From Actinomycetota bacterium (GTDB lineage: Bacteria; Actinomycetota; Acidimicrobiia; Spongiisociales; ZC4RG35): a stretch of DNA of 64,000 nt. Within the stretch, counting starts at the first letter, position 1. Each line of letters opens with the position of its first letter. Made by a program: the position numbers and the translations under genes. Location of the stretch: NCBI GenBank assembly GCA_052390035.1, contig JBQTHI010000109.1:1401-65400 (forward strand), written 5' to 3'. The notes under the pieces were generated by a model. It was not told where the DNA came from. It was given only the letters and a program-made list of their open reading frames with translations, and did no database searches. Positions 5,438 through 36,447 of the stretch are shown here, piece by piece.

Positions 5438-5520
5438 GGCGACCTCCGGTTTTGGGGCGGACAACCAAATCGGGGCGTGGCTCTCTCGCCCCGGGACGGA
5501 AAATGCGACACTGGAGGTTC

Positions 5521-9243: not shown

Positions 9244-10368
9244 TTAGTCGCCGAGCGCGACACCCAGGCGCCGGGCCGACTCGAGCCATCGGTGGTCAGG
9301 TGGCACCGTCTTCCGCCGTCCGGCGACCTCGGCCAGAGGCACCGAGACAACCTGCTCTCCCTGGGCTGCCACCATCACTCCCCTCTCGCCGCCGGCAATC
9401 GCATCAGCGCACGCTGTGCCAAGGCGAGTGGCCAGTACTCGGTCGACCGGTGAGGGCATCCCTCCCCGTTGGACGTGACCCAGGATCGTCACCCGTGCCT
9501 CGAGCCCGGTCAACGCCTCGAGTCGTTCCGCCATTTGCTCGGTGGAACGGGTCCTTGCTTCTTCGAATTTGAGCAATGCGGCCCTCGCCGCATCCTCATC
9601 ATCGTCACTCTTCGCCTCATCGACGGCAATGCGGAGTTGGTCGTGTTCGGCCCGTTCGGGACCCGACATCGCGCCCTCAGACACCACCACGATCGAAAAT
9701 GAGCTGCCCCCGGCTTTGCGCTGCATAACCGAGTCGGCCACCGCCTCAACCGAATAGGGGATCTCTGGAGTGAGGATGGCGTCTGCACCTCCGGCCAGGC
9801 CGGCTCCTAGGGCTAGCCAGCCGGCGTTGTGCCCCATCAACTCCACGACCATGATCCGGTGATGGGAGTGGGCGGTCGAGTGGAGCCGATCCACCGCCTC
9901 GGTGGCGATGCCCAGGGCGGTATCAAACCCGAACGAGGTGTCGGTTCCCCACACATCGTTGTCGATCGTCTTGGGAAGGGTGATGACCGGAATCCCCACC
10001 TCCCAGAGCCGCAATGCGTTCTTCTGGGTGCCGCCCCCGCCCAGGCATACGAGGGCTTCGAGGTCGTGCTGCTCGACCACCTTCCTGATCATCGGCCTCA
10101 TGTCCATCGGACGGCCATTGCCCACGTCCATGCGGTGGACCTTCTCTCGGCTGGTGCCGAGGATCGTGCCGCCCTTGGTGAGGATGCCGGAGAGGGTTTC
10201 GCCGTCCAGGCGGATGAAGCGATTCTGCATGAGTCCGCGGAAGCCGTCTCGAAAGCCGATCACGTGCATTCCATACGCACGTTGGGCGGCTTTGCCCACC
10301 GCCCGGATGGCAGCGTTCAGCCCAGGTGAGTCTCCGCCGGCGGTGAGAATGCCAATGGTTTGCAGCAC
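9244..10368 (-). CDS. Phosphofructokinase-family paralog (A-family, atypical active site, acidic insertion)
   Basis: [24 protein letters not shown]...LGGGGTQ...LPKTIDND...MGHNAG. Aligns cleanly to PfkA but has GGGGT where GGDGS is expected and H where the F6P-binding R of MGR is expected. It also carries a roughly 35-aa acidic insertion ([39 protein letters not shown]). Confidence 0.8.
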
Positions 10369-10948: not shown

Positions 10949-13165
10949 CTACCCAAGCAGCGAGGGGAGCGCTTCCTTCCAGGCTCGGGTCGCAAGCTCG
11001 AGATCGACGGTGGCTCCCAATCCGCCCCGGTCGAAGCTGATTTGATCCCCGCGGAGGAACCCGATCCGGACGGCTGGGATGCCCGCCTCACCGGCCACCC
11101 GCTCAACCTCGGCGCTCCGTTCGGTGCTGACCGCAAGCACGAAGCGGTGGGGGTCCTCACAGAAGAGATGTCGCCAATCGCCGTACTCGACGATGGCCCC
11201 GACCCGAGAGGCGATGCATATCTCGGAGACGGCCGTTGCCAAACCACCGAGCGAAATGTCGTGGATAACCGGGATGCCGGCTTGGGCGAGCCTGCGGGCT
11301 ACCACCAGCGCCGACCTAGCCATGGTTGGGTCACCGGCCGAGGGCCGTCCGCCGACGTGGCCGAAGGCGACCTTCTCAAAGGCGGATCCGGCCAGGTTGA
11401 TCGCCCATACCGTTCCGACCAGCCACAACTCCATGCCGGCCGCCCCCCGATCGAGCCTCGGCGGGGATGGAGGCATCGGGTCGGCAACTCCCAACATGCC
11501 GACCACCGGAGTCGGGTAGATGTCAAGCCCGTCGGTCTCGTTGTAGAAGGACACATTGCCCCCGATGATGGGGATGCCGAGCGCCTCACATGCCTCCGAG
11601 AGACCTTCTACCGTTTCTCGGAACTGCCACATCACCTCCGGTTTCTCCGGGTTTCCAAAGTTCAGATTGTCCACTAGCGCCTTCGGCTCGGCACCGGCCA
11701 GGGCAACGTTGAGAGCCGCTTCGTAGACGAGCCGGGCTGCTCCCCGTCGGGGGTCGAGGTAGCAAATACGCCCGTTCCCATCGGTGGTGAGAGCTAGAGC
11801 TTTGTTGGTGCCCTTCAACCGCAGCAGTGTTGCGTCGTGTCCGGGGCCGATCACCGTGTTGAGAAACAACATGTGGTCGAATTGTTCGTACGCCCATGCC
11901 TTACTGGCCAGTTCCGGATCGGAGAGCATCCGGAGGAGAGCCGAGGCGATGCCCGGCTGCGCAACGAACTTGACCGTGTTTGCCCACAGATCCTCCATCC
12001 AGCCTGGCTCTCCCATCGGTCGCTCGTATCGGGGCGCCCCCTCGGCCAAGGAGCCGGCCGGGACATCAACCACCTGCTCTCCCCGATGGAAGACCCGCAC
12101 CCGATCGCCGCTCGTGACCGTACCAACCCGGGAGGCGGTAATTTCATGGCGGGCCGCCACCTCGAGCACCTCATCCACCGAGTCTTCGGAGACAAATGCC
12201 ATCATCCGTTCCTGCGATTCGGAGGTGAGCAGCTCGGCGGCGGTCATGCCCGGCTCGCGGACGTGGACCTGGTCGAGGTCGATGTCGATCCCCACCCCGG
12301 CGCGGGCGGCCGGCTCGGACACGGCGCAGGAGAGGCCGGCGGCGCCCAGGTCCTGGATGCCGATCACCAGCTTGCGCCGGAACAACTCGAGACAGGCCTC
12401 GATGAGCTTCTTTTCCTCGAATGGGTCACCGACCTGGACAGAAGGCCGTTTATGGTCCGACTCCTCGACGAACGGAGCCGACGCCAGCACCGAGGCACCT
12501 CCGATGCCGTCCCGCCCGGTGGCAGCCCCGAGCAACACCGCCGCCGATCCCTCGGTCCCGGCGGTGGCGAGCATCAGTTCGTCGTCGCGGAGCAGACCAA
12601 GACACATGACGTTGACAAGCGGGTTGGTCGAGTAGTGCTCGGCGAAGGCGATCTCCCCGCCCACGGTCGGTACACCCACCGCGTTTCCGTATCCGGCGAT
12701 CCCGGCGACGACTCCTTTGAACAAATACCGGTTGCGAGGCTGGTCGAGGGGGCCAAAACGGATGGAGTCCCACAAGGCGATCGGACGGGCGCCCATGGTG
12801 AAGACATCGCGGAGGATGCCACCCACCCCGGTGGCAGCCCCCTGGTAGGGCTCGACCATAGAAGGATGGTTGTGGCTTTCGATCTTTAGAGCCGCCAGCC
12901 AGCCATCACCGATTTCTATCACCCCGGCGTTTTCGCCGGGCCCCACCACGACCCAGGGTGCCGCGGTCGGAAATCGTTTCAGATGGATCCGCGACGACTT
13001 GTAGGAGCAATGTTCGGACCACATGACCGAATACATCGCCAGCTCGGCGGAGGAAGGCGGGCGTTCGAGGGTGGTCACTATCTGAGTGAATTCGTCGTCA
13101 CTCAGGCCGAGGCGGTGGTGGAGCGATTCCGGTTCGGCGGCGACGGCCTCCTCGTCGTCGGTCAC
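10949..13165 (-). CDS. purL: Phosphoribosylformylglycinamidine synthase subunit PurL
   Basis: 738 aa with AIR-synthase-related tandem domains. Start overlaps the purQ stop. Confidence 0.95.
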   Translation of the reverse strand: MTDDEEAVAAEPESLHHRLGLSDDEFTQIVTTLERPPSSAELAMYSVMWSEHCSYKSSRIHLKRFPTAAPWVVVGPGENAGVIEIGDGWLAALKIESHNHPSMVEPYQGAATGVGGILRDVFTMGARPIALWDSIRFGPLDQPRNRYLFKGVVAGIAGYGNAVGVPTVGGEIAFAEHYSTNPLVNVMCLGLLRDDELMLATAGTEGSAAVLLGAATGRDGIGGASVLASAPFVEESDHKRPSVQVGDPFEEKKLIEACLELFRRKLVIGIQDLGAAGLSCAVSEPAARAGVGIDIDLDQVHVREPGMTAAELLTSESQERMMAFVSEDSVDEVLEVAARHEITASRVGTVTSGDRVRVFHRGEQVVDVPAGSLAEGAPRYERPMGEPGWMEDLWANTVKFVAQPGIASALLRMLSDPELASKAWAYEQFDHMLFLNTVIGPGHDATLLRLKGTNKALALTTDGNGRICYLDPRRGAARLVYEAALNVALAGAEPKALVDNLNFGNPEKPEVMWQFRETVEGLSEACEALGIPIIGGNVSFYNETDGLDIYPTPVVGMLGVADPMPPSPPRLDRGAAGMELWLVGTVWAINLAGSAFEKVAFGHVGGRPSAGDPTMARSALVVARRLAQAGIPVIHDISLGGLATAVSEICIASRVGAIVEYGDWRHLFCEDPHRFVLAVSTERSAEVERVAGEAGIPAVRIGFLRGDQISFDRGGLGATVDLELATRAWKEALPSLLG

Positions 13166-13821
13166 GTATTGGAGCTCACCGCTAGGGGCCGACTGGCCAG
13201 GCCCGCCAGCAGGAGCCGCCCATCGGTCGAGCCGAGGATCTCTTCACAGGCCCTCTCGGGATGAGGCATAACTCCAACCACATTGCCGGCCAGGTTGGAC
13301 ACGGCCGCGGCGTCCCCTTCGGCACCGTTCGGGTTGTCGACATACGTCAAGACGACCCGAGCGGTTCGCGAGGGGTCGACATAATTGCCTTCGTATGAGT
13401 TGAGAGGCATGCGGACAACGGCTCCCGGATCGACTTCGGCGGTGAGGAAAGAGTCGTTGGACACGACCGCCAGTTCTACCCATCGGCAGATGAACGAAAG
13501 CCCGGAATTGGCGATGAATGCTCCCGGCAGCAGCCCCGCTTCGCACAAGATCTGAAAGCCGTTGCAGATCCCGAGCACCGGATATCCGGAGGCAGCCATG
13601 CGCCCGACTTCCCTCATCACCGGTGAGAGACAGGCGATGGCACCCGTCCGTAGGTAGTCGCCATGGGCGAAGCCGCCGGGCAAGACCACCGCGTCGAAGC
13701 CCGCGAGGCTCTGCTGACGATGCCACACGAGCTGGGCGTCAAAACCCATCGAATCGAGGGCGAGGTGGGTGTCGAGCTCACAATTGGTGCCGGGGAAGAC
13801 CACCACTGCGACACGGGTCAC
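13162..13821 (-). CDS. purQ: Phosphoribosylformylglycinamidine synthase subunit PurQ (glutaminase)
   Basis: MTRVAVVVFPGTNCE...GICNGFQIL GATase motif. Overlaps purS and purL by 4 nt each. Confidence 0.95.
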   Translation of the reverse strand: MTRVAVVVFPGTNCELDTHLALDSMGFDAQLVWHRQQSLAGFDAVVLPGGFAHGDYLRTGAIACLSPVMREVGRMAASGYPVLGICNGFQILCEAGLLPGAFIANSGLSFICRWVELAVVSNDSFLTAEVDPGAVVRMPLNSYEGNYVDPSRTARVVLTYVDNPNGAEGDAAAVSNLAGNVVGVMPHPERACEEILGSTDGRLLLAGLASRPLAVSSNT

Positions 13822-14060
13822 GACTCAACCTCGACCGTGAAGTCCTCGATCACCGGGTTGGCGAGGAGACGGCGAGCCATCTCTTCGGCGCGGGTGATGG
13901 CGACCTTCGGGTCGGCCGTGTCCAGGTCGAGGGCGATTGACCGGTCGAAGCGGATCCGGCCTACCTCGGTGAACCCGAGCTCGTGAAGGGCTCGCTGGAC
14001 CGTGGTTCCCTCGGGATCGGCGATCTCGGGGCGACGCACGATGGCGATGCGTACCCTCAC
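13818..14060 (-). CDS. purS: Phosphoribosylformylglycinamidine synthase subunit PurS
   Basis: 80-aa core VRVRIAIVRRPEIADPEGTTVQRALHELGF. A GTG start at 14060-14058 overlaps the purC TGA (GTGA). A GGAGGGAGGG RBS is formed by the purC 3' end. The upstream extension in the track is unlikely. Confidence 0.85.
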   Translation of the reverse strand: MRVRIAIVRRPEIADPEGTTVQRALHELGFTEVGRIRFDRSIALDLDTADPKVAITRAEEMARRLLANPVIEDFTVEVES

Positions 14061-14929
14061 CCCTCCCTCCGCGAATAGCTGGCAAAGGAGTCTCCGGTTA
14101 TCCGCTCGTACGCTTCGACATATCGCGACCGGGTCTCGTCGAGGACTTCTGGTGGGAGCGGTGGGGCGGGGGGAGCGTGATCCCAGCCTTGTCGATCGAG
14201 CCAATCACGCACGTACTGTTTGTCAAAGGAGGGGACCTCACGTCCGGGCACCCATTGGTCGGCCGGCCAGTAGCGCGAAGAATCGGGGGTGAGCACCTCG
14301 TCTACCAACAAGAGTTCGTCCCCGACATGACCGAACTCGAGCTTGGTATCGGCGAGGATCACCCCCCGGGCCGCGGCGTGAGCGGCCGCCCTGCGGTAGA
14401 TCTCAACCGAGCGCCGCCGCAGCTCCTCGTATAGGACGTCACCGATGAGGCGGCGGGCCCCCTTCTCGTCGAGGTTCTGATCGTGGCCCTCCACTGCCTT
14501 GGTGGCCGGGGTGAAGATCGGCACATCGAGGCGATCCCCCATGACCAAGCCCGAAGGAAGGTGTTCGGTGGTGGGTCCTCCCCCCGCCCGATATTCGCGC
14601 CACGACGAGCCGTATAGATAACCCCTGACGACACATTCCATGGGGACCACCTCTGCCTGGCGGACGATCATCGATCTTCCTTCGAACCAGGCTCCCAGAT
14701 CGAGTCCGTTGAGCTCGGTCGTGAGCAGATGATTGGGAACGTCGAGCAGCTCAAAAAAGTGGAGCGACAGCCCGGTGAGTACCCGGCCTTTGTCGGGAAC
14801 GAGGTCGTCGAGGACGACGTCGTAGGCACTAATCCGATCGGTGGCGACCATCAGCAGCCGCTCCTCGTCAACGGCGTAGATGTCTCGCACCTTCCCGGAG
14901 CCGATCTTGTTGAGCGCTCCCGACCTCAC
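14057..14929 (-). CDS. purC: SAICAR synthetase
   Basis: MRSGALNKIGSGKVRDIYAVD...LADTKLEFG canonical PurC. Confidence 0.95.
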   Translation of the reverse strand: MRSGALNKIGSGKVRDIYAVDEERLLMVATDRISAYDVVLDDLVPDKGRVLTGLSLHFFELLDVPNHLLTTELNGLDLGAWFEGRSMIVRQAEVVPMECVVRGYLYGSSWREYRAGGGPTTEHLPSGLVMGDRLDVPIFTPATKAVEGHDQNLDEKGARRLIGDVLYEELRRRSVEIYRRAAAHAAARGVILADTKLEFGHVGDELLLVDEVLTPDSSRYWPADQWVPGREVPSFDKQYVRDWLDRQGWDHAPPAPPLPPEVLDETRSRYVEAYERITGDSFASYSRREG

Positions 14930-17243: not shown

Positions 17244-18149
17244 GTGAATCGGATCGGGGTCGATCTCGGGGGAACGAAGATCGAAGCGATTGCCCTTTCG
17301 ACCGATGGGGAGGAGCTCGTCCGCTTACGGGTCGCCACTCCGGCCAACGATTATCAGGCGATCCTCCAGGCGATTTCTACCCTGGTCGGCGAGGTGGAAG
17401 CGGCGGCAGCACCTACCTTCCCCGCCATCGGGATCGGGACACCGGGGGCGGTGAGTCCTGCCACCGGGCTAATGAAGAACTCCAATTCCGAGGCGCTCAA
17501 CGGGCGGCCCTTTCCACCGGACCTCGAGAGCATGCTCGGGCGGCCGGTGATCTCGCGCAACGACGCCGACTGTTTCGCACTCTCCGAGGCGCGGGACGGG
17601 GCCGGGTCCGGTCGCGACACGGTCTTCGGGGTGATCATCGGCACCGGAGTGGGCGGTGGGATCGTGGTCGACGGTCGGGCGCTGTCCGGGCCCAACGCCA
17701 TCGCCGGAGAATGGGGCCACAACCCGCTGCCGTGGCCACGGGACGACGAGCGTCCGGGAGTCGAGTGCTACTGCGGTTTGCGCGGATGCATCGAGACGTT
17801 CCTTTCCGGCCCCGGATTCGCCGGCCACCATCAGAGTCGTTCGGGCCGGCGCGCCGCTCCCGAAATCGTGGCCGCCGCCCGGGCCGGGGATGTCTCCGCC
17901 CGGCGGAGCCTTGCCGACTATGCCGACCGGCTGGCCCGCAGCCTGGCCGTAGTCATCAACCTCCTCGACCCCGATGTCATCGTGCTTGGTGGCGGCATGA
18001 GCAACATCGACGAGCTCTACCGACTCGTGCCGGAGACTTGGGGGAGTTACGTCTTCAGCGACACGGTCAGGACACCCCTGGTACGAAACAAACACGGCGA
18101 CTCGAGCGGAGTAAGAGGGGCGGCCTGGTTGGTCGATCCCGTTACCTAA
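17244..18149 (+). CDS. ROK-family sugar kinase (NagK/glucokinase-like)
   Basis: IGVDLGGTKIE N-terminal ATP motif and the ROK zinc motif ECYCGLRGCIE. GTG start. Confidence 0.8.
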   Translation: MNRIGVDLGGTKIEAIALSTDGEELVRLRVATPANDYQAILQAISTLVGEVEAAAAPTFPAIGIGTPGAVSPATGLMKNSNSEALNGRPFPPDLESMLGRPVISRNDADCFALSEARDGAGSGRDTVFGVIIGTGVGGGIVVDGRALSGPNAIAGEWGHNPLPWPRDDERPGVECYCGLRGCIETFLSGPGFAGHHQSRSGRRAAPEIVAAARAGDVSARRSLADYADRLARSLAVVINLLDPDVIVLGGGMSNIDELYRLVPETWGSYVFSDTVRTPLVRNKHGDSSGVRGAAWLVDPVT

Positions 18150-18183
18150 GGTTTGGGGTGGGGCTGTACCACACCGATCGCCT

Positions 18184-19458
18184 TTAGAAGCCTGGCCGAT
18201 CGGCGACGAAGTGTCCTCCTACCATCACCGAGGTGACGTCGCTGGCGGTGGCGGCGAAGACGGCGGCGGCCAGCCAGTGCTCGGGGGCGATTCCTCGCAA
18301 CCGCTCCGAGTCGAAGTTGATGGTCACGAGGTCGGCGAGGCCGCCGGGGGCGAGTACGCCACCTTCCCACCCGAGGCTCCGGTAGCCGTTGACGGTGGCG
18401 GCGCTGAGCAGCTCTTGAAGCGAGTGGTTTCCCCGGCGCAGCGTGGTAAGCCGCTGGTTGAGCTCCACCGCCCTGGTCTCCTCGAAAGGGTCGATGATGG
18501 CCTGCGAGTCGCTGCCGATCGCCAACCGCGCCCCGGTGGCAGCCAGCCTCATCGACGGACCAATGCCGTCGGCCAGATCTCGCTCGGTGGTCGGACACAA
18601 ACATACCGTGGCTTGCGCTTCGCCGAGCAGACGGATGTCATGGTCGGTGAGATGGGTGCCATGCACCGCGGTGAAGTTGGCGTCTACCAGACCGACCGAG
18701 GCGAGCAGTTCGGTGGGGGTGCAGCCGTGGACGGCCCGGCAGGCATCGTTTTCTGCCGGCTGCTCGGACACATGAGCATGGACCGGCAGCTGCCGATGCC
18801 GAGCCAGCACCGCAACTGCTTGCATCGCCTCCGGGTCGACCGCCCGCACTGAATGGACCGCCAGCGCCCGTTTGGCCTCGGTCCGCCACGACGTGAATCG
18901 ATCCACCCAGGCTTCGGCGGAGCCATCGGAGAAGCGGGTCTGGAAGGCTTCGAGCGGGAGATAGCGACCATCAAGCCCCCCATGTAGATAGACGCTGTCG
19001 ATGATGGTCAAGCGGATCCCCGTTAGGCGAGCGGCTTCGACGAGGGCTTCACCCATGGCATGCGGGTTCTCATAAGGGATGCCACCCGGACCGTGATGGA
19101 GATAATGGAATTCCCCCACCACGGTGTACCCGGCGGCCACCATCTCTGAGAAGACTCCGGCAGCCAGAACTCGATATGAGTCTGGATCGAGCGCAGCGGC
19201 GGCCTCGTACATCTTCTCCCGCCACGTCCAGAACGAGCCCGATCCTTGCTGGCTGCGGCCCCGCATCATCCGGTGGAAGGCGTGGCTGTGGGCGTTGGCA
19301 AAACCGGGCAAGGTAAGACCCCAAAGGCTGGTAGCCCCGGCGGGTGGCGACACCCCGGGAGTGACGCTCGCAATATTCTCCCCGTCGACTTCTATCAGCA
19401 CCCCCTGCTCGGCATCATCGCCGGCCAGCCACGCCTGCTCACACCACAGAGTGGTCAC
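18184..19458 (-). CDS. hutF: Formimidoylglutamate deiminase
   Basis: LPGFANAHSHAFHRMMRG and SFWTWREKMY closely match Pseudomonas HutF (LPGMPNLHSHAFQRAMAG, SFWTWRELMY). GTG start overlaps the def TGA (GTGA). Confidence 0.85.
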   Translation of the reverse strand: MTTLWCEQAWLAGDDAEQGVLIEVDGENIASVTPGVSPPAGATSLWGLTLPGFANAHSHAFHRMMRGRSQQGSGSFWTWREKMYEAAAALDPDSYRVLAAGVFSEMVAAGYTVVGEFHYLHHGPGGIPYENPHAMGEALVEAARLTGIRLTIIDSVYLHGGLDGRYLPLEAFQTRFSDGSAEAWVDRFTSWRTEAKRALAVHSVRAVDPEAMQAVAVLARHRQLPVHAHVSEQPAENDACRAVHGCTPTELLASVGLVDANFTAVHGTHLTDHDIRLLGEAQATVCLCPTTERDLADGIGPSMRLAATGARLAIGSDSQAIIDPFEETRAVELNQRLTTLRRGNHSLQELLSAATVNGYRSLGWEGGVLAPGGLADLVTINFDSERLRGIAPEHWLAAAVFAATASDVTSVMVGGHFVADRPGF

Positions 19459-20024
19459 GAACCGACCCGCTTGACAAAGGCTGTTATGCGGGCAACGAAA
19501 TCATCCTTGTAATGGGCTTCGTATTGCTCCCAAGTGGAGAGGGTGCGAGGGTCGGTGCGGTCGAGGATCAGGGTTCCGTCGAGATGATCGATTTCGTGCT
19601 GGAACGTGCCGGCGGTCAGGCCCCGCTTGACCTCCACGTGTTTGACACCGCTTCGGTCCCAGTAGGTCACCTCGATGTTCACATGACGCTCAAGGAGGCC
19701 CCGCAGGGGAACGGAAAGGCATCCCTCGTTGATCTCGACCATCTCGTCATCGAGAGGGACAAAAGTCGGGTTGATGGCCACCACCAGAGGAATCTGGGGT
19801 TTGTAGGGATAGCGGGGGTTGCTGGCCACCTCGATGGTGGCCATCCGCCATGACGATCCGACCTGGTTGGCGGCGATCCCTGCCCCGGCCGCGTCCCTCA
19901 TCGTGTCTATCAGGTCATCGATGAGTCGTTGCACGTCACCCGACGCCAGCCGTTCGAGAGGCACCGGAACGGTGCCAGCGCGGAGAATTGGGTGCCCCAC
20001 CGCCATGATCGGGAGCACCGCCAT
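19455..20024 (-). CDS. def: Peptide-deformylase-family metallohydrolase embedded in the hut operon (possible N-formylglutamate deformylase)
   Basis: All three PDF motifs are present: GAGIAANQVG (motif 1 with P replaced by N), EGCLS, and HEIDHL. ATG lies 4 nt after the hutU stop, and its stop overlaps the hutF GTG. Confidence 0.85.
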   Translation of the reverse strand: MAVLPIMAVGHPILRAGTVPVPLERLASGDVQRLIDDLIDTMRDAAGAGIAANQVGSSWRMATIEVASNPRYPYKPQIPLVVAINPTFVPLDDEMVEINEGCLSVPLRGLLERHVNIEVTYWDRSGVKHVEVKRGLTAGTFQHEIDHLDGTLILDRTDPRTLSTWEQYEAHYKDDFVARITAFVKRVGS

Positions 20025-20028
20025 CGGT

Positions 20029-21702
20029 CTAGGCGCCCTGAACCATCATCGGTATTTGCACTCCCCGTTCTGCGGCCACGGTCCGGGCCTGGGGGTATCC
20101 GGCGTCGACGTGGCGAATGACCCCCATCCCCGGGTCGCAGGTGAGGACACGCTCCAACTTTTGGGCAGCGAGATTGGAACCGTCGGCGACGGTCACCTGG
20201 CCGGCGTGGATCGAGCGTCCAATCCCCACGCCGCCGCCGTGATGGATGGAGACCCATGATGCCCCCGAAGCGGTATTGACCATGGCGTTGAGGAGTGGCC
20301 AGTCGGCGATAGCGTCTGAGCCGTCGAGCATGTCTTCGGTTTCCCGGTATGGCGACGCCACCGAGCCCGAGTCGAGATGGTCACGTCCGATGACAATGGG
20401 CGCCTTCAGGTCGCCTCGGCGGACCATGTCGTTGAAGCGGAGACCCAGGCGATGACGCTCTCCATAGCCCAACCAGCAGATGCGTGCGGGCAACCCTTGA
20501 TATGCGACTCGTTCGGAAGCCAGCTCGATCCACCGCCGGAGCGGCTCGTTGTCGGGGAACTCTTCCATGACCGCCCGGTCGGTTGCGGCGATGTCGGCGG
20601 GATCGCCGGAGAGGGCGACCCATCGGAACGGCCCCTTACCCTCGCAAAACAGCGGGCGGATGTAGGCAGGGAGGAAGCCCGGATAGTCGAACGCCCTTTC
20701 GTACCCTCCCAGCCTGGCTTCAGCCCGCAGGCTGTTTCCGTAGTCGAAAACCTCGGCACCGGCGTCCATGAAACCGACCATCGCTTCGACATGGGAGACG
20801 ATGCTGGCCCGGGCGCGTCTCACGTACCCGTCCGGATCTTCGATTTTCATTCGTTCGGCCGCCTCGGGAGAAAGGTCCACTGCGGCATAGCTGAACGGGT
20901 CGTGGGCCGACGTCTGATCGGTGAGGACATCGGCGTCGAATCCCTCCACCAGTAGGCGGGGGAGGACGTCGGCGGCGTTGCCTACCAACCCGACCGACAA
21001 CGGCCTCCTCTCGGCTTTCGCCTCCCGGCAGAGCCGCAGAGCGTGGGCATAGTCGTCGGCCTTGACGTCCAGATAGCGCGTTTCGAGCCGCCTCTGCACC
21101 CTCGCCGGATCGACCTCCACACACAGCGCCACTCCGTTGTTCATCGTGATCGCCAGAGGTTGAGCGCCTCCCATTCCGCCCAGACCGGCGGTGACGGTGA
21201 TGGTGCCTGCCAGCGTTCCGCCGAACCGTTTGTCGGCGATGGCGGCAAAACATTCATAGGTTCCCTGCAGAATCCCCTGGGTGCCGATGTAGATCCATGA
21301 CCCGGCGGTCATCTGGCCATACATGGTCAGTCCCAGATGTTCCAGACGGCGGAACTCTTCCCAGGTTGCCCACTCGGGGACCAGGTTGGAGTTGGCGATC
21401 AAAACGCGGGGTGCCCATTCGTGGGTGCGGAAGACACCCACCGGCTTACCCGACTGGACGAGCATGGTCTCGTCGTCCTCGAGGGTTCGGAGAGTCGTCA
21501 GCATGGCGTCAAGAGCCTCCCAACTGCGAGCGGCTCTACCGGTGCCTCCGTACACGACGAGGTCCTCGGGACGTTCGGCGACGTCAGGGTCGAGGTTGTT
21601 CTGCAGCATCCGGAAGGCGGCCTCCTGCGGCCAACCCCGACAGGTCAATTGGGGGCCGGTGGGTGAACGGACAAGACGAGCCATGCCCGCCATTCTGGTC
21701 AT
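20029..21702 (-). CDS. hutU: Urocanate hydratase
   Basis: [45 protein letters not shown]..., near-identical in pattern to Pseudomonas HutU. The true start is at one of three Met codons (21702/21693/21684). The 146-aa upstream extension in the track is spurious. Confidence 0.9.
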
Positions 21703-21750
21703 CCGCGGCGGCTGAGACCTGGCCGCACGTCGCTCGGTATCGTCCCTTCC

Positions 21751-23280
21751 ATGGTGCTGTTGTTGTCCGGATTCGGCGTAACGATCGAGGACGTGGTGGC
21801 GGTGGCGAGAGAAGGCGCGGTCGTCGAGATCACCGCCCAAGCCCAAGAGCGCATGGCTGCCTCTCGTCATATCGTCGACCGGTTGGTCGAGGGCGAGCCG
21901 ACCTATGGCGTTTCGACCGGCTTCGGGGCACTGGCGACGGTCTCGATCCCATCCGAGCGCCGAGCGGCGTTGCAGGTGGCGCTGGTGCGGTCTCACGCCG
22001 CGGGTATGGGCGACACAGTGGAAACCGAAGTGGTCAGGGCCATGACCTTCCTCCGGGCTCGCACACTGGGACTGGGATTCAGCGGGACACGGCCCGCAAC
22101 CGCCCAGGCGCTGGTCGACCTTCTCAACCACCACATTCACCCGCTGGTGCGCGAGTACGGATCACTCGGCGCAAGCGGTGACTTGGCTCCGCTCGCTCAC
22201 GTCGCCTTGGCACTCATTGGCGAAGGTGAGGTGGAGTGGAGCGGGTCCGTAATGCCGGCCATCGCCGCCCTGCGATCCTCCGGACTCACCCCGATCGTCC
22301 TTGCCGAGAAAGAGGGTCTGGCCCTCACCAACGGGACCGATGGCGTCCTGGCGATGCTTTGTCTTGCCGTCGCCGATGCCACGCTTCTGCTCAAGACCGC
22401 AGACGTGGTCGCCGCTCTCACTGTCGAAGCGATGCTGGCCACCGATCGCGCCTTTGCCGCCGATCTGTTGGCCCTCCGGCCTCATCCCGGGCAGGCGGCC
22501 AGTGGGGCCAACCTCCGCCGGCTGCTCAAGGGTTCACCTTTGGTGGCGAGCCACCGCTACGACGATCCCCGGGTGCAGGATGCCTACTCGATCCGCTGCA
22601 CCCCCCAGGTCCACGGCGCCGCTCGTGACACCCTCGCCCATGTTCGGATGGTGGCCGATCGCGAGCTAGCCGCGGCGATCGACAACCCCATGGTGCTTCC
22701 CGACGGCCGGGTGGAGTCGGGTGGGAACTTCCATGGAGCCCCGCTCGGTCATGCCGCCGACTTCCTTGCCATTTCGCTAACCGATGCTTCGGCGATTGCC
22801 GAAAGACGCATGGATCGGATCCTCGACCAGGCCCGTAGCCACGGACTGCCCCCGTTCTTAGCCGATGACCCCGGGGTTGACTCCGGTTTGATGATCGCCC
22901 ACTACACCGCCGCCTCGATGGTGGAGGAGAATCGGCGCCTATCCACCCCAGCCAGCATCGACTCGTATCCGACCTCGGGAATGCAGGAGGACCACGTTTC
23001 GATGGCCTGGGGGGCCGCCCGCAAACTTCGCAAGGTCATCGACAACTACGCCAGGGTGGTGGCGGTCGAGCTGGCCATAGCCGCTCGAGGGGCGGAGTTG
23101 CGGGCAGATGTGGGATTGCCGGCGCCGGCTACTCGAAGGGTGATCGAGCGCCTACGAACGGTGGTCCCGGGGCCCGGGCCCGACCGTTACTTGTCCCCCG
23201 AGTTGCGCGCCGCCGAGGAATTGGTCTCCGTGGGGGCAGTCCTCGCCGCCGCCGAGGGAGTTACTGGGCCTTTGGACTGA
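21751..23280 (+). CDS. hutH: Histidine ammonia-lyase
   Basis: 509 aa with the ASG MIO-forming triad in [11 protein letters not shown]. Confidence 0.9.
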
Positions 23281-23284
23281 TGGC

Positions 23285-25435
23285 TCAGGTGTTGAGCACC
23301 ACCACCGGGCAGGGGCAACCGGCCAGCACCCGCTCGACACGGGGGCCGAGGAATAGCCGTCGCGAGGCGGAACGCACCGAGGTGCCGAGAACGACGAGGT
23401 CGGCCCCGATCCGACGAGCCGTCTCCAAGATGGCCTCCTCCGGCTCCGGACCCATCCGCACCTCGAGCTCTGTCGAAACCCCGACGGCCTCACCGAGCTG
23501 GCGGATTTCGCCGGCGATCTGCTGGCCGATCTCGAGCTTGGTGGCCGGCTCGTCGGTGATCGCCCCCGATAACAGGTCGCTCCCCGAGGGAACGACGTGG
23601 ACGACGGTCACCAGCGCGTCCGACTCGGCGACGGCGAAAGCCAGTTCCGCCGCTCGGCGGCTGGCCGGGGTTCCATCGGTAGGCAGGACGATCCGCCGCG
23701 GCCTCCAATTCCGGTCGACCCCCTCGCCTCGCACCACTAATGACGGCACCGGGGCCAGGCGGACGATCTCGTCGACCACCCCGCCGAAGAGGGCCTCGGA
23801 CGTCGAGTCCATCTCGGTCGCCCCCAGCACTACCAGGTCGTAGTCGCGGTTGGCCTCGGCCAGCACTGCCGCCACCGCGCTCTTGGCCTCGATCACCCTC
23901 CGGGTCACCGCGGTGCGCGATCCGAATAGGAGCTCGACCTCGCCGAGGAAATCGTTCACCTGGGAGCGATCGGCCCTGCTGGCGACCGACATCAAGGTCA
24001 CCACCAGGCCGTGATTTGCTGCCAGCCTGCCCAACAGCGCCGCCTCGATGATCTGGGGCCCCCCGGCCGGATTGGCCCGGGGCCGCATCGGCAGCAACAC
24101 CCTTCTGATACCGGCGACCAGCGATCCCTGGACGCTTTCCTCCCGCTTGAGCCGGTCCAGTTCCTCCGCTTCCGGCTCGATACGGCGGAAAGTCGCCCGA
24201 AGGGCGAAGGGCGCCGTCAGCGAAGTCACCACTGCCATCAGTACCACCATCGAAAAGACCTCTTGGCTGAGGATCCCGAGCGATAAACCGATGGCGGCGA
24301 CGATGATGCCTACCGCCCCCCGGGCGTTGAGTCCGGCCCCATAGGCAAGTGAGGTCCAGTGATCCTGGTGGCTGAGCAGGCGGGCTCCCGCATAGGCCCC
24401 CGCCACCTTGCCAATGGTGGCCACACCGATCACGATTCCGGCCAGAGTCAACAACCTGGGGTTGGCCAGACTGGGGATGTCCACCTTCAAACCGGCCACG
24501 GCAAAGAAGATCGGGGAGAGCACCGCCAGGGTCATCCCCTCCAGCTTCTCGGCCACGTCGGGAGGAAGTCTGCGCATCTGCCCAAAGAGGATCCCGATGG
24601 CAAACGCTCCCACGACCGGCTCCAGCCGCAGCCATTGGGAAAAGGCCCCCCAAGCCAACGACAGCAGCACCACCAGAGTCAGGATCCGGTCGCGGCTGTG
24701 AAGGTGGTCCTGGACGAAGGCGATCGAGCGTGCCACGACGACCCTCCCCACCAACGCGGTGGCGACGATGAAGACGGCGACGGTGGCAAACCCCTGAAGG
24801 ATCTCGCTTGCCACGAACCCCCCGGCGGCCGCGAGGCTGGCCACGATCCCGAGCAGTGTCCAGCCAGTGATGTCATCGAGCATGGCGGCGGCGAGCACGG
24901 TTTGTCCGATGTCGCGGCGGATGAGCCGGAGGTCGATCAGCACCTTGGCCAGCACCGGTATGGCCGAGATCGACATGGCGGTGGCGAGAAACAATGCGAA
25001 CAAGCTTCGTTGACTGGGGTCGGCGAGCAGATCGGCGGGGAACACGAGACCGAGGACCAGGCCGGCAATGAAAGGGACGACCAGGCCGCCGATCGCAACC
25101 CCTACCGCCGTCCTCGCCTTACGACGGATCAGGGACAGGTCGGTTTCGAGGCCGGTGATGACCAGGAGCAACATGACTCCGATGAGAGCCACCAGCTCGA
25201 CCAGATGTCCCTGCACCGGTGTCTGCGGAATGACCCAGGCCGCCAATCCCGGGGCCAGCACCCCCAGCACCGACGGTCCCAGCAGAACCCCTGCCAGGAT
25301 CTCGCCGACGACCGATGGTTGCCCGAGGCGGAGGAACAGCTCCCCGAGCAGACGAGCAGCGGCGAGCAGCGCGACCAGCGCTACCAGAACGTGGAGGACG
25401 TCCTGGCTGGGGGCCGCCATGAATGGCGGGATCAA
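23285..25435 (-). CDS. CPA2-family cation:proton antiporter fused to two C-terminal universal-stress-protein (USP) domains
   Basis: About 12 TM helices (GEILAGVLLGPSVLG...) followed by two USP-like modules (DLVVLGATE...VPSLVV; DLVVLGTS...CPVVVL). ATG overlaps the purB stop by 4 nt. Confidence 0.8.
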   Translation of the reverse strand: MIPPFMAAPSQDVLHVLVALVALLAAARLLGELFLRLGQPSVVGEILAGVLLGPSVLGVLAPGLAAWVIPQTPVQGHLVELVALIGVMLLLVITGLETDLSLIRRKARTAVGVAIGGLVVPFIAGLVLGLVFPADLLADPSQRSLFALFLATAMSISAIPVLAKVLIDLRLIRRDIGQTVLAAAMLDDITGWTLLGIVASLAAAGGFVASEILQGFATVAVFIVATALVGRVVVARSIAFVQDHLHSRDRILTLVVLLSLAWGAFSQWLRLEPVVGAFAIGILFGQMRRLPPDVAEKLEGMTLAVLSPIFFAVAGLKVDIPSLANPRLLTLAGIVIGVATIGKVAGAYAGARLLSHQDHWTSLAYGAGLNARGAVGIIVAAIGLSLGILSQEVFSMVVLMAVVTSLTAPFALRATFRRIEPEAEELDRLKREESVQGSLVAGIRRVLLPMRPRANPAGGPQIIEAALLGRLAANHGLVVTLMSVASRADRSQVNDFLGEVELLFGSRTAVTRRVIEAKSAVAAVLAEANRDYDLVVLGATEMDSTSEALFGGVVDEIVRLAPVPSLVVRGEGVDRNWRPRRIVLPTDGTPASRRAAELAFAVAESDALVTVVHVVPSGSDLLSGAITDEPATKLEIGQQIAGEIRQLGEAVGVSTELEVRMGPEPEEAILETARRIGADLVVLGTSVRSASRRLFLGPRVERVLAGCPCPVVVLNT

Positions 25436-26730
25436 ACGAGCTCCAAATCGCGCAGGCGTTCGTAAACCACGTCGCTGTTACTAAAGAAGCGTTGTGGCTC
25501 AAAACAGTTCTTCAGGTCATCCGGCGACAAGGTGACCCGGTCGTCATCAGCCAAAAGGTCGTATAGCTGGGAACCCGTATCCCAAGCTCGGAGGGCGTTC
25601 TCCTGCACGATCCGATAAGCCGTGTCACGAGCGGTCCCCACCGCCACCATCGCCAGCAACACGGCTTGGCTATAGACCAATCCGCTCGTGGCGGACAGGT
25701 TGGCCTCCATTCGCCGCCCGTCGACGACCATGCCATCGATGAGTTGGCGCATCCGTACGAGCATGTAATGCAGGGCGAGGCAGGCATCGGGGACCGCCAC
25801 CCGCTCGGCCGAGGAGTGGCTGATATCACGTTCGTGCCAGAGCGAGACATTCTCGAAGCCCACGACGGCGTATCCACGGAGCAGCCGCGCCATTCCGCAG
25901 ATTCGCTCGGCAGTGATCGGGTTGCGTTTGTGGGGCATCGCCGACGAGCCCTTCTGTCCGGGGCGAAACGGCTCTCGCACCTCCCCCACCTCGGACCGCT
26001 GCAGGTGGCGGATCTCTGTCGCCATCCGCTCCAGGCAAGCTCCGACAAGAGCAATGGTCGCCAGGAACTCGGCGTGCCGATCGCGAGCCGTCACCTGCGT
26101 CGAGGCCGGCTCGGCGATCAAGCCAAGCTGTGAACAGACGTGCTGCTCGATCGATGGTGGAGTGTGGGCGTAGGTGCCAACCGCCCCCGAGATCTTCCCC
26201 ACGGACACCGTCCGTCTCGCTTCGACCAGCCGCCGATGGCCGCGGGCAACTTCGAACGCCCATCCCGCCACCTTGAGCCCAAAGGTGGTGGGCTCGGCCC
26301 AGATCCCATGGGTGCGACCCACCATCACGGTGTCCCGATGTTCGAATGCCTTCTTCCTGACTACGGCAAACAAGTCGGCGGTCGCCGAGATGAGCAGGGT
26401 GGCCGCCTCCGCCATGATTGCCCCCGAGGCGGTGTCCAGCACATCGGACGAGGTCAGGCCGTAATGGAGCCATTCCCCATTGGGAGCGATCCGGGCCGAG
26501 AGCACATCGACAAAAGCGGCCACGTCGTGGTCGGTCAGCTTCTCCCGTTCGGCAACTTCCTCTGGGGTCGGCGTTGGCACGTCCCGGAGTACCGGCGCCA
26601 ACCCGATCGGGGCGACACCGAGTTGAGCCCATGCCTCCAGGGCGAGGGTTTCTACCTCCTTCCAGAGGTCGAGACGGTGGGATTCCGTCCACACCGCCGC
26701 CATCTCGGGAAGCGAATAACGACCGATCAC
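25432..26730 (-). CDS. purB: Adenylosuccinate lyase
   Basis: GSSAMPHKRNP signature. A GTG start giving MIGRYSLPEM matches the conserved PurB N-terminus. The longer track ORF is unlikely. Confidence 0.9.
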   Translation of the reverse strand: MIGRYSLPEMAAVWTESHRLDLWKEVETLALEAWAQLGVAPIGLAPVLRDVPTPTPEEVAEREKLTDHDVAAFVDVLSARIAPNGEWLHYGLTSSDVLDTASGAIMAEAATLLISATADLFAVVRKKAFEHRDTVMVGRTHGIWAEPTTFGLKVAGWAFEVARGHRRLVEARRTVSVGKISGAVGTYAHTPPSIEQHVCSQLGLIAEPASTQVTARDRHAEFLATIALVGACLERMATEIRHLQRSEVGEVREPFRPGQKGSSAMPHKRNPITAERICGMARLLRGYAVVGFENVSLWHERDISHSSAERVAVPDACLALHYMLVRMRQLIDGMVVDGRRMEANLSATSGLVYSQAVLLAMVAVGTARDTAYRIVQENALRAWDTGSQLYDLLADDDRVTLSPDDLKNCFEPQRFFSNSDVVYERLRDLELV

Positions 26731-26833
26731 GCATTCACCATCTCGGCGGAGGGTACCGACCAATCCGCTCCCTCTCACCCCGAACGCCTCGGGGAAGGAA
26801 GCCACCAGCCCGCGTTCTCCTAGCCTGGCACTC

Positions 26834-28018
26834 GTGCGCCGCTTCACCATCCCTCAGGCTCGTCGGATCGCCCTCGCCGCACAGGGTTTTGCCGATCCCC
26901 GTCCCGCCGGGCGGATTGATAACCGTCACCTGCGCCGCGTAATTCAACGGGTGGGGGTGGTTCAACTCGACTCCGTCAATGTGGTTGCCCGCGCCCACTA
27001 TTTGCCGTTTTTCGCCCGGCTCGGCGCCTACCCGATGGAACTGGTCGATCGAATGGCCTGGAGGAGCAGGGAGCTGACCGAATATTGGGCGCACGAAGCC
27101 GCCCTTGTCCCGGTGAACCGGTGGCCCCTCTTTCGTCATCGGATGAGGGCCGGGTGGCATCACTGGCCTTCGATGGCCCGTTGGATGGAGGCGAATCCAC
27201 AGGTGATCTCAGAGGTGATGGCCGAAATCCGACAGCGGGGAGCGCTGCGCCCAGCCGACCTCGATCACCACGCCAACGGGGAGAAAGGACCATGGTGGTC
27301 CTGGTCGGACGCCAAGGGTGCACTCGAAGGACTGTTCTTTACCGGTCAGGTGGTTGTGACGGAGAGGGTCAGATTCGAGCGCTACTACGACCTACCCGAA
27401 AGAGTGCTGCCGGCCGAGGTGCTCTACACCGAGGTGGATGAAGACGACGCCCGCCGGAGGCTTTTGACCTTCGCCACCCAACATCTCGGAATCGGCACGG
27501 TGCCTGACATTGCCGACTATTACCGCATGAAACGGCAGCCGGCCTCGACGATCCTCGCCGACCTGGCGCGGGAAGGGGTGGTCGATGAGGTTGAAGTGAC
27601 CGGCTGGAAGGGCCCGGTATATATCGACCCGTCGGCTCGTCGTCCGCGCCGGATCGAAGCGGTGGCGCTGTTGTGCCCATTCGACCCGGTGGTGTGGTTC
27701 CGACCACGGGCCGAGCGCCTGTTCAACTTTCACTATCGAATCGAGATCTACACCCCGCCGTCCAAGCGGGTATATGGCTATTACGTGTTCCCCATCCTCC
27801 TCAACGAAGAACTGGTTGGACGGGTCGACCTCAAGGCCGACCGCCAAGCGGGGATGCTGCGGGTTCGGGGGTCTTACATCGAGCCAGGCCATGATCCTTC
27901 TCGGGTGGCGGGACCGGTGGCCGGTGAACTCGTTCTGATGTCCGGCTGGCTGGGTTTGAACGGAGTGGTGGTTGAGGAGCGGGGCGATCTGGCCCCGGCG
28001 TTGAGCCGGGCCCTCTAA
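26834..28018 (+). CDS. Winged-helix DNA glycosylase of the AlkZ/YcaQ (HTH_42) family, putative interstrand-crosslink repair
   Basis: About 394 aa. The N-terminal GVVQLDSVNV carries the Q-phi-D catalytic motif described for YcaQ-type enzymes. Overall length and Trp-rich pattern fit the family. Assigned by pattern memory only. Confidence 0.55.
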   Translation: MRRFTIPQARRIALAAQGFADPRPAGRIDNRHLRRVIQRVGVVQLDSVNVVARAHYLPFFARLGAYPMELVDRMAWRSRELTEYWAHEAALVPVNRWPLFRHRMRAGWHHWPSMARWMEANPQVISEVMAEIRQRGALRPADLDHHANGEKGPWWSWSDAKGALEGLFFTGQVVVTERVRFERYYDLPERVLPAEVLYTEVDEDDARRRLLTFATQHLGIGTVPDIADYYRMKRQPASTILADLAREGVVDEVEVTGWKGPVYIDPSARRPRRIEAVALLCPFDPVVWFRPRAERLFNFHYRIEIYTPPSKRVYGYYVFPILLNEELVGRVDLKADRQAGMLRVRGSYIEPGHDPSRVAGPVAGELVLMSGWLGLNGVVVEERGDLAPALSRAL

Positions 28019-28473
28019 CCGGCAAGGGTTTCTTCGGCCAATTGCCGGCGGTAGGCAGCCAGCTTGTTGGTGAGGGCTTGGTCGCCTATGGCGAGGATGG
28101 CCACCGCCAGCAGAGCGGCATTGGCGGCGCCATCAACTGCCACCGTGGCCACCGGGATCCCCGTCGGCATCTGCACGGTCGAGAGCAGCGCATCCAAACC
28201 GTTGAGCGACGCTGACAGCGGCACTCCGATCACCGGGAGCAGCGATTTGGCTGCCATCACCCCGGCGAGATGGGCGGCTTTTCCAGCCCCGGCGATAATC
28301 ACCGAAAAGCCGTCAGCCGCCGCCCCCTCGGCGAAGGCGATCGCCTGCTCGGGGGTCTTGTGAGCCGACAGCACCCTCGTCTCGTACTCCACCTCGAATC
28401 GGGCGAGGATCGCTGCGGCCTTTTCCATAACCGGGCGGTCGCTCCCCGAACCCATCAGTATTGCCACCTTCAT
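28015..28473 (-). CDS. purE: N5-carboxyaminoimidazole ribonucleotide mutase
   Basis: MKVAILMGSGSD...VIIAGAGKAAHL canonical PurE. Confidence 0.9.
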   Translation of the reverse strand: MKVAILMGSGSDRPVMEKAAAILARFEVEYETRVLSAHKTPEQAIAFAEGAAADGFSVIIAGAGKAAHLAGVMAAKSLLPVIGVPLSASLNGLDALLSTVQMPTGIPVATVAVDGAANAALLAVAILAIGDQALTNKLAAYRRQLAEETLAG

Positions 28474-29753
28474 CGGCGTGAGACGCTAATGGTTTCTTGC
28501 TCCAGCCCAGGCGCCGAGGCGATGTCGCGCCGAAGCTGTTTTCCAGCGAAGGTGATCCGGTCGGCCAGCGAATATGCTCGCGACCGAGCCTGAGCCAGGT
28601 CTGGCCCGAGACCGACTGCCGACAGCACTCGACCCCCGCCGGTGAAAAGTTGTCCGCCCTGGTTCGAGGTTGCAGCGTGGAAGACCAACTCGCCCTCGCC
28701 CATTTCGGGGATGCTGATCGTCTCACCGACAAGAGGGCGGTCGGGATATCCAGCCGAGGCCAGCACCACGCTCACCACCGCCTCCTCGGACCATTCGATG
28801 GTTTGCCGAGCGAGGGTGCCTTCGAGTCCGGCCTCGATCAGATCGACCAGATCGGTCTCGAGCCGGGGGAGCACAGCTTGGGTTTCGGGATCACCGAGAC
28901 GGCAGTTGAACTCCAACACCCGTGGTCCGGCTTCGGTTAATACCAACCCGACATACAAGAAACCCGTGTAAGGGAAGCCATCACCGGACAGAGTGGTGAG
29001 GACCGGTCGCATCACCTTCTCGACCGTGTGACCGACCAGCCCGGCCGGCAAGTCGCTAAGTGGCGAGAAGGCGCCCATCCCACCGGTGTTGGGCCCGGCG
29101 TCGCCATCGAGTAGCCGCTTGTAGTCCCGCGCCGGCTCGAGCGGAAGCACATCGGATCCCGCGCAAAGGGCAAACAGGCTCACCTCCGGTCCGTCGAGGA
29201 AGTCCTCGATGATCACGACCTTTTCACCGAACCAGCCGCTCAGGCAACGGTGCACCCACTCCTCGGCGGCGGCTCGGTGATCGGTGACCAGCACCCCCTT
29301 TCCCGCCGCCAGACCATCGGCCTTGACAACGAAGGGACCGGTTCGCCCGTCCAGGTAGGAGATCGCTCTACCTTCGTCGGTGAAAGTGCCCCAATCGGCG
29401 GTGGCTACCCCGGCTCGGTCCATCACGTGTTTGGCAAACGACTTGGACCATTCGAGACGGGCAGCGGCCCGGCTCGGGCCCCACACCGGGATCCGCCCGC
29501 TCCGTAGATGGTCGACCACACCGGCGGCCAACGGCGCCTCGGGCCCGACCACCACCAGATCTACCCCCCACGCCCTGGCGCTGGCGGCGACCCGATCGCC
29601 ATCGGAGGCGTCAACCCCACCGATGGTGGGACCTAACGACGCCAGGCCGGGGTTGCCGGGGAGCGAGACCAGTTGATCCACCCGGGAGCTCTTGGCGAGC
29701 CTCCAGCCGAGCGCATGTTCTCTCGCCCCCGAACCCAGGAGAAGGATCTTCAC
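28470..29753 (-). CDS. purD: Phosphoribosylamine--glycine ligase
   Basis: MKILLLGSGAREHALGWRL N-terminus with an ATP-grasp fold. Confidence 0.9.
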   Translation of the reverse strand: MKILLLGSGAREHALGWRLAKSSRVDQLVSLPGNPGLASLGPTIGGVDASDGDRVAASARAWGVDLVVVGPEAPLAAGVVDHLRSGRIPVWGPSRAAARLEWSKSFAKHVMDRAGVATADWGTFTDEGRAISYLDGRTGPFVVKADGLAAGKGVLVTDHRAAAEEWVHRCLSGWFGEKVVIIEDFLDGPEVSLFALCAGSDVLPLEPARDYKRLLDGDAGPNTGGMGAFSPLSDLPAGLVGHTVEKVMRPVLTTLSGDGFPYTGFLYVGLVLTEAGPRVLEFNCRLGDPETQAVLPRLETDLVDLIEAGLEGTLARQTIEWSEEAVVSVVLASAGYPDRPLVGETISIPEMGEGELVFHAATSNQGGQLFTGGGRVLSAVGLGPDLAQARSRAYSLADRITFAGKQLRRDIASAPGLEQETISVSRR

Positions 29754-36169: not shown

Positions 36170-36417
36170 CCGTAGTGATCTTCGAGGATTGCCACTGCCT
36201 CCGAGACGATCTCGCCCCACTCAGCATCCTGCGTTTTGGACACCGTCACGAAATTGGCGGTTAAAAAGACGCTGGTGACGCCGGGCAGATCAAGAAGTTG
36301 TTGGGCCATGGGGCTTTCCGCCGGTTTCCCGGCCATGTATGTCATTGGACCTCCGACCGGCTGGCCCACGACGAACTTCACGGCGTTGGGATTGGGAGTC
36401 GACTCGACAGAGATCAC
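36166..36417 (-). CDS. Nfu/NifU N-terminal-domain-like small protein
   Basis: ISVESTPNPNAVKFVV....VFLTANFVTVSK matches the Nfu_N scaffold-domain pattern. A GTG start at 36417 gives 83 aa. The 148-aa track ORF would overlap hyuA. Start uncertain. Confidence 0.45.
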   Translation of the reverse strand: MISVESTPNPNAVKFVVGQPVGGPMTYMAGKPAESPMAQQLLDLPGVTSVFLTANFVTVSKTQDAEWGEIVSEAVAILEDHYG

Positions 36418-36447
36418 GAACGTTTTATACCAGCAAGAGAGTGCTTG

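Follow-up and report, generated by a model that had tools for sequence, protein, structure and literature searches.

Enzymes of more than one family are known to carry histidine catabolism to glutamate. In the branch that runs through HutF (formimidoylglutamate deiminase), N-formyl-L-glutamate is split into formate and L-glutamate by the Pseudomonas HutG protein (FGase, PF05013, TIGR02017, Enzyme Commission number EC 3.5.1.68), whose gene lies in the hut cluster. The arginase-family HutG (formimidoylglutamase, EC 3.5.3.8) also yields glutamate at the end of the pathway, but its substrate is formimidoylglutamate itself, formamide is set free, and HutF is not needed. Peptide deformylase (PDF; EC 3.5.1.88, PF01327) is generally regarded as dedicated to protein maturation alone and as a target for antibiotics. 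The subject of this analysis is a PDF-fold gene, here called def-like, that lies between hutU (urocanate hydratase) and hutF on contig JBQTHI010000109.1 of an Actinomycetota bacterium of the class Acidimicrobiia. The whole 64,000-nt stretch of this contig that was analyzed is referred to as the window. On sequence evidence, and with a probability of roughly 0.75, the def-like protein is proposed to be an N-formylglutamate deformylase of the PDF fold, one that supplies the last step of the HutF branch of histidine catabolism.

How does the locus compare with the described systems? The def-like gene resembles that of Pseudomonas HutG in lying in a hut cluster, and its product resembles HutG in its predicted step, which follows HutF and gives formate and L-glutamate. 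However, the two proteins share no sequence or fold relationship, and the def-like protein would be a non-orthologous replacement. A second counterpart is the hut-linked M20 protein (NF006770, COG0624), which in sister hut operons takes the same slot, either between hutU and hutF or immediately upstream of hutF, and is likewise found fused to HutF, but whose dimetallopeptidase fold is unrelated to PDF. With PDF itself the def-like protein shares the fold, the three motifs, the Cys/His/His ligands, the catalytic Glu, the Gln, an enlarged CD loop of the type "N-x-R-Y-P", and the predicted reaction type, hydrolysis of an N-formyl amide. It departs from PDF in its genetic setting, because the gene lies in, and is coupled to, a catabolic operon and not in a housekeeping context. 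Furthermore, it is predicted to act on a free N-formyl amino acid carrying two carboxylates and not on a peptide.

The pathway logic of the window points in the same direction. The identification of HutF in the initial annotation was confirmed by an equivalog-level profile match (Table 1). As that annotation had also noted, no HutG-family gene is present: a Pfam scan of essentially all open reading frames (ORFs) of the window found no FGase, arginase-type HutG, M20 amidase, or fmt. With an equivalog-level HutF and a window that lacks FGase, arginase-type, and M20 enzymes, the PDF-like enzyme is the favored candidate for the last step. The chemistry also favors an N-formylglutamate deformylase since PDF already hydrolyzes an N-formyl amide. 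In the proposed scheme, HutH and HutU would convert histidine to imidazolonepropionate, and HutI, encoded elsewhere in the genome, would convert imidazolonepropionate to N-formimidoyl-L-glutamate. HutF would then remove ammonia to give N-formyl-L-glutamate, and the PDF-like enzyme would hydrolyze the formamide bond of this product to release formate and L-glutamate (EC 3.5.1.68).

Linkage to hut genes and exchange of partners

Relatives of the def-like protein were sought in one genome per GTDB species, and at least 453 species-representative genomes carry one. The def-like protein itself is 100% identical to an NCBI protein of an Actinomycetota metagenome-assembled genome, and the closest relatives are named as Acidimicrobiia. 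Linkage was judged on the best 80 of the 453, all of which come from Acidimicrobiia-type metagenome-assembled genomes (MAGs), with a few binned under other names. The resulting def-anchored set consisted of 81 loci after duplicates were removed. In every one of the 81 loci, the PDF gene lies beside hutU and/or hutF, and a PDF profile search found exactly one PDF gene per locus. Three gene orders occur in total across this set and the hutF-anchored scan described below. The prevailing order in the def-anchored loci is hutU-def-hutF-hutI, and six of these loci show hutH-hutF-hutI-hutU-def. The third order, hutU-hutF-def-hutI, was found in nine loci of the hutF-anchored scan that belong to a lower-GC lineage (~52% guanine plus cytosine).

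The initial annotation had described a 4-nt spacing between hutU and the def-like gene and an overlap of the def-like stop codon with the hutF start codon, and had judged these junctions too tight for a chance neighbor. Both junctions were verified base by base (Table 1), and their tightness recurs in related loci. A 4-nt overlap between the def stop and a possible hutF start is seen in 52 of 72 loci, and the hutU stop lies 20 nt or less from the def start in 44 of 77. Neighbor clustering, in which a coding filter was used against antisense shadow ORFs in high-GC DNA, returned only hutU, hutF, hutI, and hutH as widely shared partners; an IclR regulator is present in ~12 def-anchored loci. Co-directional adjacency and coupling thus persist across species and rearrangements, and they establish the PDF-like gene as a translationally coupled member of the hut operon. 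The hutU, def, and hutF genes are presumably co-transcribed.

Two side observations concern these operons. In some Ilumatobacteraceae-type hut operons, a PhyH-family gene (phytanoyl-CoA dioxygenase-like, PF05721) in the same orientation separates hutU from the def-like gene, and hutU-def gaps of ~0.8 kb are due to this insertion (for example L076:5846-6748; similar ORFs in L017, L023, L032, L042, L053, and L081). One MAG, MFD09779.bin.1.356, contains two near-identical hutH/hutU...def-hutF-hutI loci on separate contigs (L010 and L012), which probably reflects a strain duplication in the bin and not a paralogous operon.

Because def-anchored sampling would be circular as a test of linkage, metagenome contigs were also scanned with the window HutF. 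A total of 80 loci were picked by HutF similarity alone, and the genes beside hutF were then read. The neighbor of hutF was of the PDF type in 28 loci and an M20 amidase, directly upstream, in 36; no locus had both, and 16 had neither, seven of which were truncated. When only the 54 loci showing both hutU and hutF are considered, 24 have the PDF type, 21 have M20, and nine have neither. The M20 protein of this slot matches NF006770 ("allantoate amidohydrolase") at 591 bits. It was found by reading the ORFs in the gaps, and M20 seeds from distant bacteria (L090, L091) had missed it. Conversely, none of the 81 def-anchored loci contains an M20 gene. The partner type falls into largely lineage-coherent blocks on a dendrogram of HutF similarity, and in other bacteria an ArgE/DapE-type M20 gene overlaps the hutF start. 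In other words, two unrelated metallo-amidohydrolases alternate in one slot and exclude each other, which is the pattern expected of the non-orthologous displacement of a single pathway step.

Operons with neither a PDF-like nor an M20 gene (hutH/hutU-hutF-hutI) display a conserved 220-aa ORF directly after hutI (L098:8539-9198; the same ORF in L105 and L107). This ORF has no Pfam match and could be another candidate for the missing step, or unrelated to it.

Further evidence for a tie between the PDF domain and HutF comes from proteins in which the two are fused. The first fusion, found in the search of representatives, was P0154, a 659-aa protein in which an N-terminal PDF domain is joined to a C-terminal HutF domain. 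A search with P0154 returned ~18 proteins that combine PF01327 with PF01979, and the fusion proteins considered here are P0154 and P0271-P0288 (loci L085-L089). Transcriptomes in EukProt place such fusions in the choanoflagellates Stephanoeca diplocostata and Acanthoeca spectabilis and in the chrysophyte Paraphysomonas. Two fusions that were looked up sit among eukaryote-type neighbors, namely EF-hand, ankyrin, and Oscp1 proteins and a 1541-aa ABC transporter. All full-length fusions keep the catalytic motifs, and they also keep YPYKP and AGT, two elements of a sequence signature discussed below. In oomycetes (Phytophthora, Pythium, Lagenidium, and Globisporangium), HutF is fused to an M20 peptidase instead (P0291, P0303, P0340, P0346). 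The PDF type is joined to the enzyme of the preceding step, as in a Rosetta-stone fusion, which indicates that the PDF domain is functionally tied to HutF. The pair of PDF and M20 fusions in eukaryotes also parallels the alternation of PDF and M20 in operons. Microbial eukaryotes seem to operate the HutF branch with either of two fusion partners.

Catalytic center and substrate pocket of the def-like protein

A complete PDF homolog with the motifs GAGIAANQVG, EGCLS, and HEIDHL between hutU and hutF had been described in the initial annotation, and the ORFs, the profile matches, and the alignment all agree with this description. The PF01327 score of the protein lies far above the cut-off (132 against 22.8 bits) and places it in the PDF superfamily. 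It also passes the subfamily model NF001159 (131.6 bits, cut-off 125) and falls short of TIGR00079, the NCBI equivalog for true PDF (99.3 bits, cut-off 103.95). Only PDF models matched in the Pfam and NCBIfam scans of the protein, and no FGase model (PF05013/TIGR02017) was among them. The name given by NCBI and JGI to the window protein and its closest relatives is peptide deformylase. An AF2 (AlphaFold2) model of the protein has a pLDDT (predicted local distance difference test) of 95.3, and the top Foldseek matches of this model are all PDFs. The best PDB match is the Leptospira PDF 1sv2 (template modeling score, TM, 0.87/0.95; root-mean-square deviation 1.0 Å). The closest solved structures are those of Leptospira interrogans PDF (1SV2/1Y6H) and of the mitochondrial-type PDF1A of Arabidopsis and human.

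The GxGxAAxQ, EGCLS, and QHExDH motifs are invariant across the 53 family members aligned. The def-like protein would accordingly be expected to have a standard PDF metal center formed by Cys102, His143, and His147, with Glu144 as the general base and Gln54 in the oxyanion site. A separate observation is that a 194-aa PDF-like representative from a low-GC organism (P0158) has QHVIDH in place of QHExDH and so has lost the catalytic Glu; it may be an inactive PDF homolog.

The residues around the substrate are where the family and canonical PDFs part. They were compared in an alignment of 82 hut-linked proteins, 15 fusion PDF domains, 16 further signature-bearing representatives, and 51 canonical relatives. 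E. coli PDF was used for numbering (literature numbering, Ser1 = 1), and the copy used was verified against the PDB. The position of E. coli Ile44 is Ala48 in the def-like protein and is Ala in 100% of hut-linked and fusion members, as opposed to V/A/I in canonical PDFs. Ile128 corresponds to Gly139, which is Gly in 94-100% of the family and R/V/A in canonical PDFs; this position is Cys in the group with the third gene order (motif A-C-T) and Val in one representative. Cys129 corresponds to Thr140, which is Thr in 100% of the family and V/I in canonical PDFs. In the CD loop, Tyr74 and Lys75 are present in 100% of hut-linked and fusion members, and canonical relatives mostly have D/E followed by A. 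Every complete sequence that has the AGT motif also has RYPYKP. A two-helix C-terminal extension is also conserved in the PDF-like family (T164-W165, F176). Relative to PDF, the family thus differs in the change of Ile44/Ile128/Cys129 to Ala/Gly/Thr, in the Tyr-Lys pair of the CD loop, and in the C-terminal extension, and the def-like protein differs in its score under the TIGR00079 cut-off.

What could these replacements mean for specificity? Ile42 and Ile130 of AtPDF1B have been described as key residues of the hydrophobic S1' pocket, and the CD loop of the Leptospira PDF is reported to open and close (PMC3101196). In this analysis, AtPDF1B Ile42 and Ile130 were equated with E. coli Ile44 and Ile128. 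With Ala48, Gly139, and Thr140 at the pocket positions, the hydrophobic S1' pocket of a housekeeping PDF is not preserved. The def-like pocket would be larger and more polar than a Met pocket, with small or polar residues in place of hydrophobic ones. Thr140 would come close to the position of the tip of the Met side chain, where the gamma-carboxylate of formyl-Glu would be expected to sit. Lys75 would be available for a carboxylate, and together with Tyr74 on the gating CD loop it could provide a binding site for the carboxylates of a substrate that is a free N-formyl amino acid.

The initial annotation had pointed to a different residue, the Asn in motif 1 at the place of a near-invariant Pro, as a sign of a remodeled S1' pocket. 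This marker of specificity was rejected. The position is Thr in E. coli PDF and Asn in the housekeeping PDF of Mycobacterium tuberculosis (GVGLAANQ), and within the hut-linked family it varies (N 73%, T 22%, P 5%), with Pro in every fusion protein. As read from the alignment, the actual signature is Ala48, Tyr74-Lys75, Gly139, and Thr140.

Gene calls and surroundings of the hut cluster

The GC content of the window is ~64%, and the features of the hut cluster are collected in Table 1. The hutH gene and the hutU operon are divergent, with 48 nt between their start codons (21702-21751), so that the promoters of both, and any regulator site, must be contained in this distance or overlap it. A consensus promoter scan found no promoter in the 48-nt stretch, and leaderless hutU and hutH transcripts are possible. 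Within the hutU-def-hutF operon, a promoter and terminator scan gave nothing meaningful. In agreement with the initial annotation, tblastn found no hutI in the window.

Table 1. Features of the hut cluster and of the def-like protein, in positions of the 64,000-nt window; ORFs were typed by NCBIfam and Pfam profile matches
Feature	Position	Strand	Evidence or remark
hutH, histidine ammonia-lyase	21751-23280	+	TIGR01225 639 bits, NF006871 652 bits, PF00221
hutU, urocanate hydratase, first gene of the minus-strand unit	20029-21702	-	TIGR01228 891.6 bits; three urocanase Pfam domains
hutU TAG (20031-20029) and 4-nt spacer ACCG before the def-like ATG (20024-20022)	20025-20031	-	base-by-base reading
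PDF-fold gene (def-like), 189 aa, predicted N-formylglutamate deformylase	19455-20024	-	PF01327 132 bits
Motif 1, G47-A-G-I-A-A-N-Q54 (GAGIAANQVG)	19863-19886	-	Ala48 at the place of S1' residue Ile44 of E. coli PDF
CD-loop signature, R71-Y-P-Y74-K75-P76	19797-19814	-	Tyr-Lys pair invariant in hut-linked and fusion members
Motif 2, E100-G-C102-L-S104 (EGCLS), with Cys102 as metal ligand	19713-19727	-	invariant in alignment
A138-G139-T140-F-Q-H143-E144-I-D-H147, motif 3 (HEIDHL) with two His ligands and catalytic Glu	19584-19613	-	Gly/Thr replace E. coli Ile128/Cys129
GTGA overlap, hutF GTG (19458-19456) on def-like TGA (19457-19455)	19455-19458	-	base-by-base reading
hutF, formimidoylglutamate deiminase	18184-19458	-	NF006681 equivalog 561.4 bits (cut-off 362); TIGR02022 438.5 bits (cut-off 413)

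In the region downstream of hutF (17244-18184) lies a convergent ROK-family gene. Most other loci have hutI directly after hutF, and in the closest relatives of the window (L005, L006, L016, L028, L052) the two genes are parted by 0.5-5.6 kb of inserted genes. The hut cluster is flanked by two purine-biosynthesis-like blocks (10949-14929 and 25432-31021), which were read from translations as purL/Q/S/C in one block and purB/E/D/A in the other. Likewise, purC-purS-purQ-purL-type genes adjoin the hut cluster of a distant relative (L001, 11776-15722) according to precomputed Pfam annotation. Elsewhere in the window, the segments 36298-39890 and 39972-43781 hold hydantoinase/oxoprolinase A and B genes and then a GlcD/GlcE/GlcF-like set of FAD and Fe-S oxidases, and there are two phosphofructokinase-family genes (5242-6660 and 9244-10368).

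Competing explanations and significance

Several observations weigh against the reading of the def-like protein as an N-formylglutamate deformylase that defines one family. The first concerns phylogeny. The initial annotation had suggested testing whether hut-linked copies with the AANQ motif form a clade conserved next to hutF and hutU; the adjacency was upheld, but the whole signature family was not recovered as a single clade. In neighbor-joining trees with 500 bootstraps, the eukaryotic fusions form a clade in 452-492 of the 500 replicates, and the bacterial and eukaryotic signature-bearing PDFs were not recovered together as one clade. The fusion PDF domains also score nearly the same with a hut-linked and with a canonical profile. 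The shared signature could therefore be convergent, and a common origin of the bacterial and eukaryotic members is not claimed. Second, relatives with the third gene order pass the TIGR00079 equivalog cut-off, at 116 bits. Third, nine informative hutF loci have no PDF or M20 partner nearby. Finally, the hut-linked M20 had been predicted in SEED as an alternative N-formylglutamate deformylase, and the activity of the Streptomyces avermitilis protein was not detected in vitro, a negative result stated without details (PMC3223725, Table 3). Either the assay missed a real activity, or its outcome warns that the reaction of the slot is not quite EC 3.5.1.68.

One alternative, an unlikely one, is a dual role, in which the def-like protein is a peptide deformylase for nascent proteins, possibly the only one of the cell, and, upon induction of the hut operon, also acts on N-formylglutamate. 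In favor of this reading, the protein retains every catalytic residue of PDF, the NF001159 cut-off is passed (and that of TIGR00079 by members with the third gene order), and the closest solved structures are active PDFs. Moreover, tblastn and a PDF profile search found no second def in the 64-kb window, and none was found in any of 84 def-anchored loci. However, the window and these loci cover just a small fraction of each genome, and the failure to find a second def in them carries little weight. A housekeeping function is also not expected to vanish wherever an M20 amidase fills the slot, and the hydrophobic residues of the Met pocket are replaced. Fusion to HutF in eukaryotes would likewise not be expected of a housekeeping enzyme; eukaryotic cytosolic translation is not known to use formyl-Met.

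Another alternative, improbable to a similar extent, is that the def-like protein belongs to the Hut pathway but acts on another substrate, such as N-formimidoyl-L-glutamate, formylisoglutamine, or another N-formyl by-product, or serves as a structural or channeling partner of HutF. Linkage fixes the pathway and not the substrate, and the negative assay of the M20 protein from the equivalent slot is consistent with such a reading. On the other hand, the product of HutF is N-formyl-L-glutamate, and nothing else in these clusters can take off the formyl group. Direct use of formimidoylglutamate would make HutF redundant, yet the two genes are coupled or fused, and a non-catalytic partner is at odds with the conservation of the full catalytic apparatus.

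An ordinary housekeeping PDF that landed in the hut operon by chance would account for the database name and for the canonical fold and motifs, but it is very improbable given an adjacency kept in all 81 def-anchored loci, the three gene orders seen overall, the recurrent 4-nt overlap with hutF, the strict exclusivity with M20, the PDF-HutF fusions, and the nearest relatives that lack the signature, a PDF family of Rokubacteria that is neither hut-linked nor fmt-linked.

The proposal of the initial annotation that a PDF homolog stands in for the N-formylglutamate deformylase is thus supported, as a prediction, by the linkage, the exclusivity with M20, the fusions, and a remodeled S1' pocket. 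It is also probable that the members marked by RYP-YK-P and by a small residue plus Thr before QHExDH are a distinct PDF-fold family and a third, non-homologous kind of N-formylglutamate deformylase. A full-text literature search returned no paper linking PDF to formylglutamate or to the hut pathway, and the PDF-like family appears undescribed as far as could be found.

If the def-like protein is an N-formylglutamate deformylase, this would be the first metabolic role, outside protein maturation, for the peptide deformylase fold, and a family acting on a metabolite would widen the chemistry of that fold. Such a family would be spread through Acidimicrobiia and other high-GC Actinomycetota-like lineages of soil and freshwater. 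Under the current label "peptide deformylase", hundreds of Acidimicrobiia genomes seem to have an incomplete Hut pathway, and relabeling would close this gap. The alternation of the PDF-like and M20 genes in one operon slot offers a clean case in which to study displacement in place. Choanoflagellates and chrysophytes, in turn, would use a PDF-HutF fusion enzyme, and the choanoflagellate fusions provide an independent handle on the function of the family.

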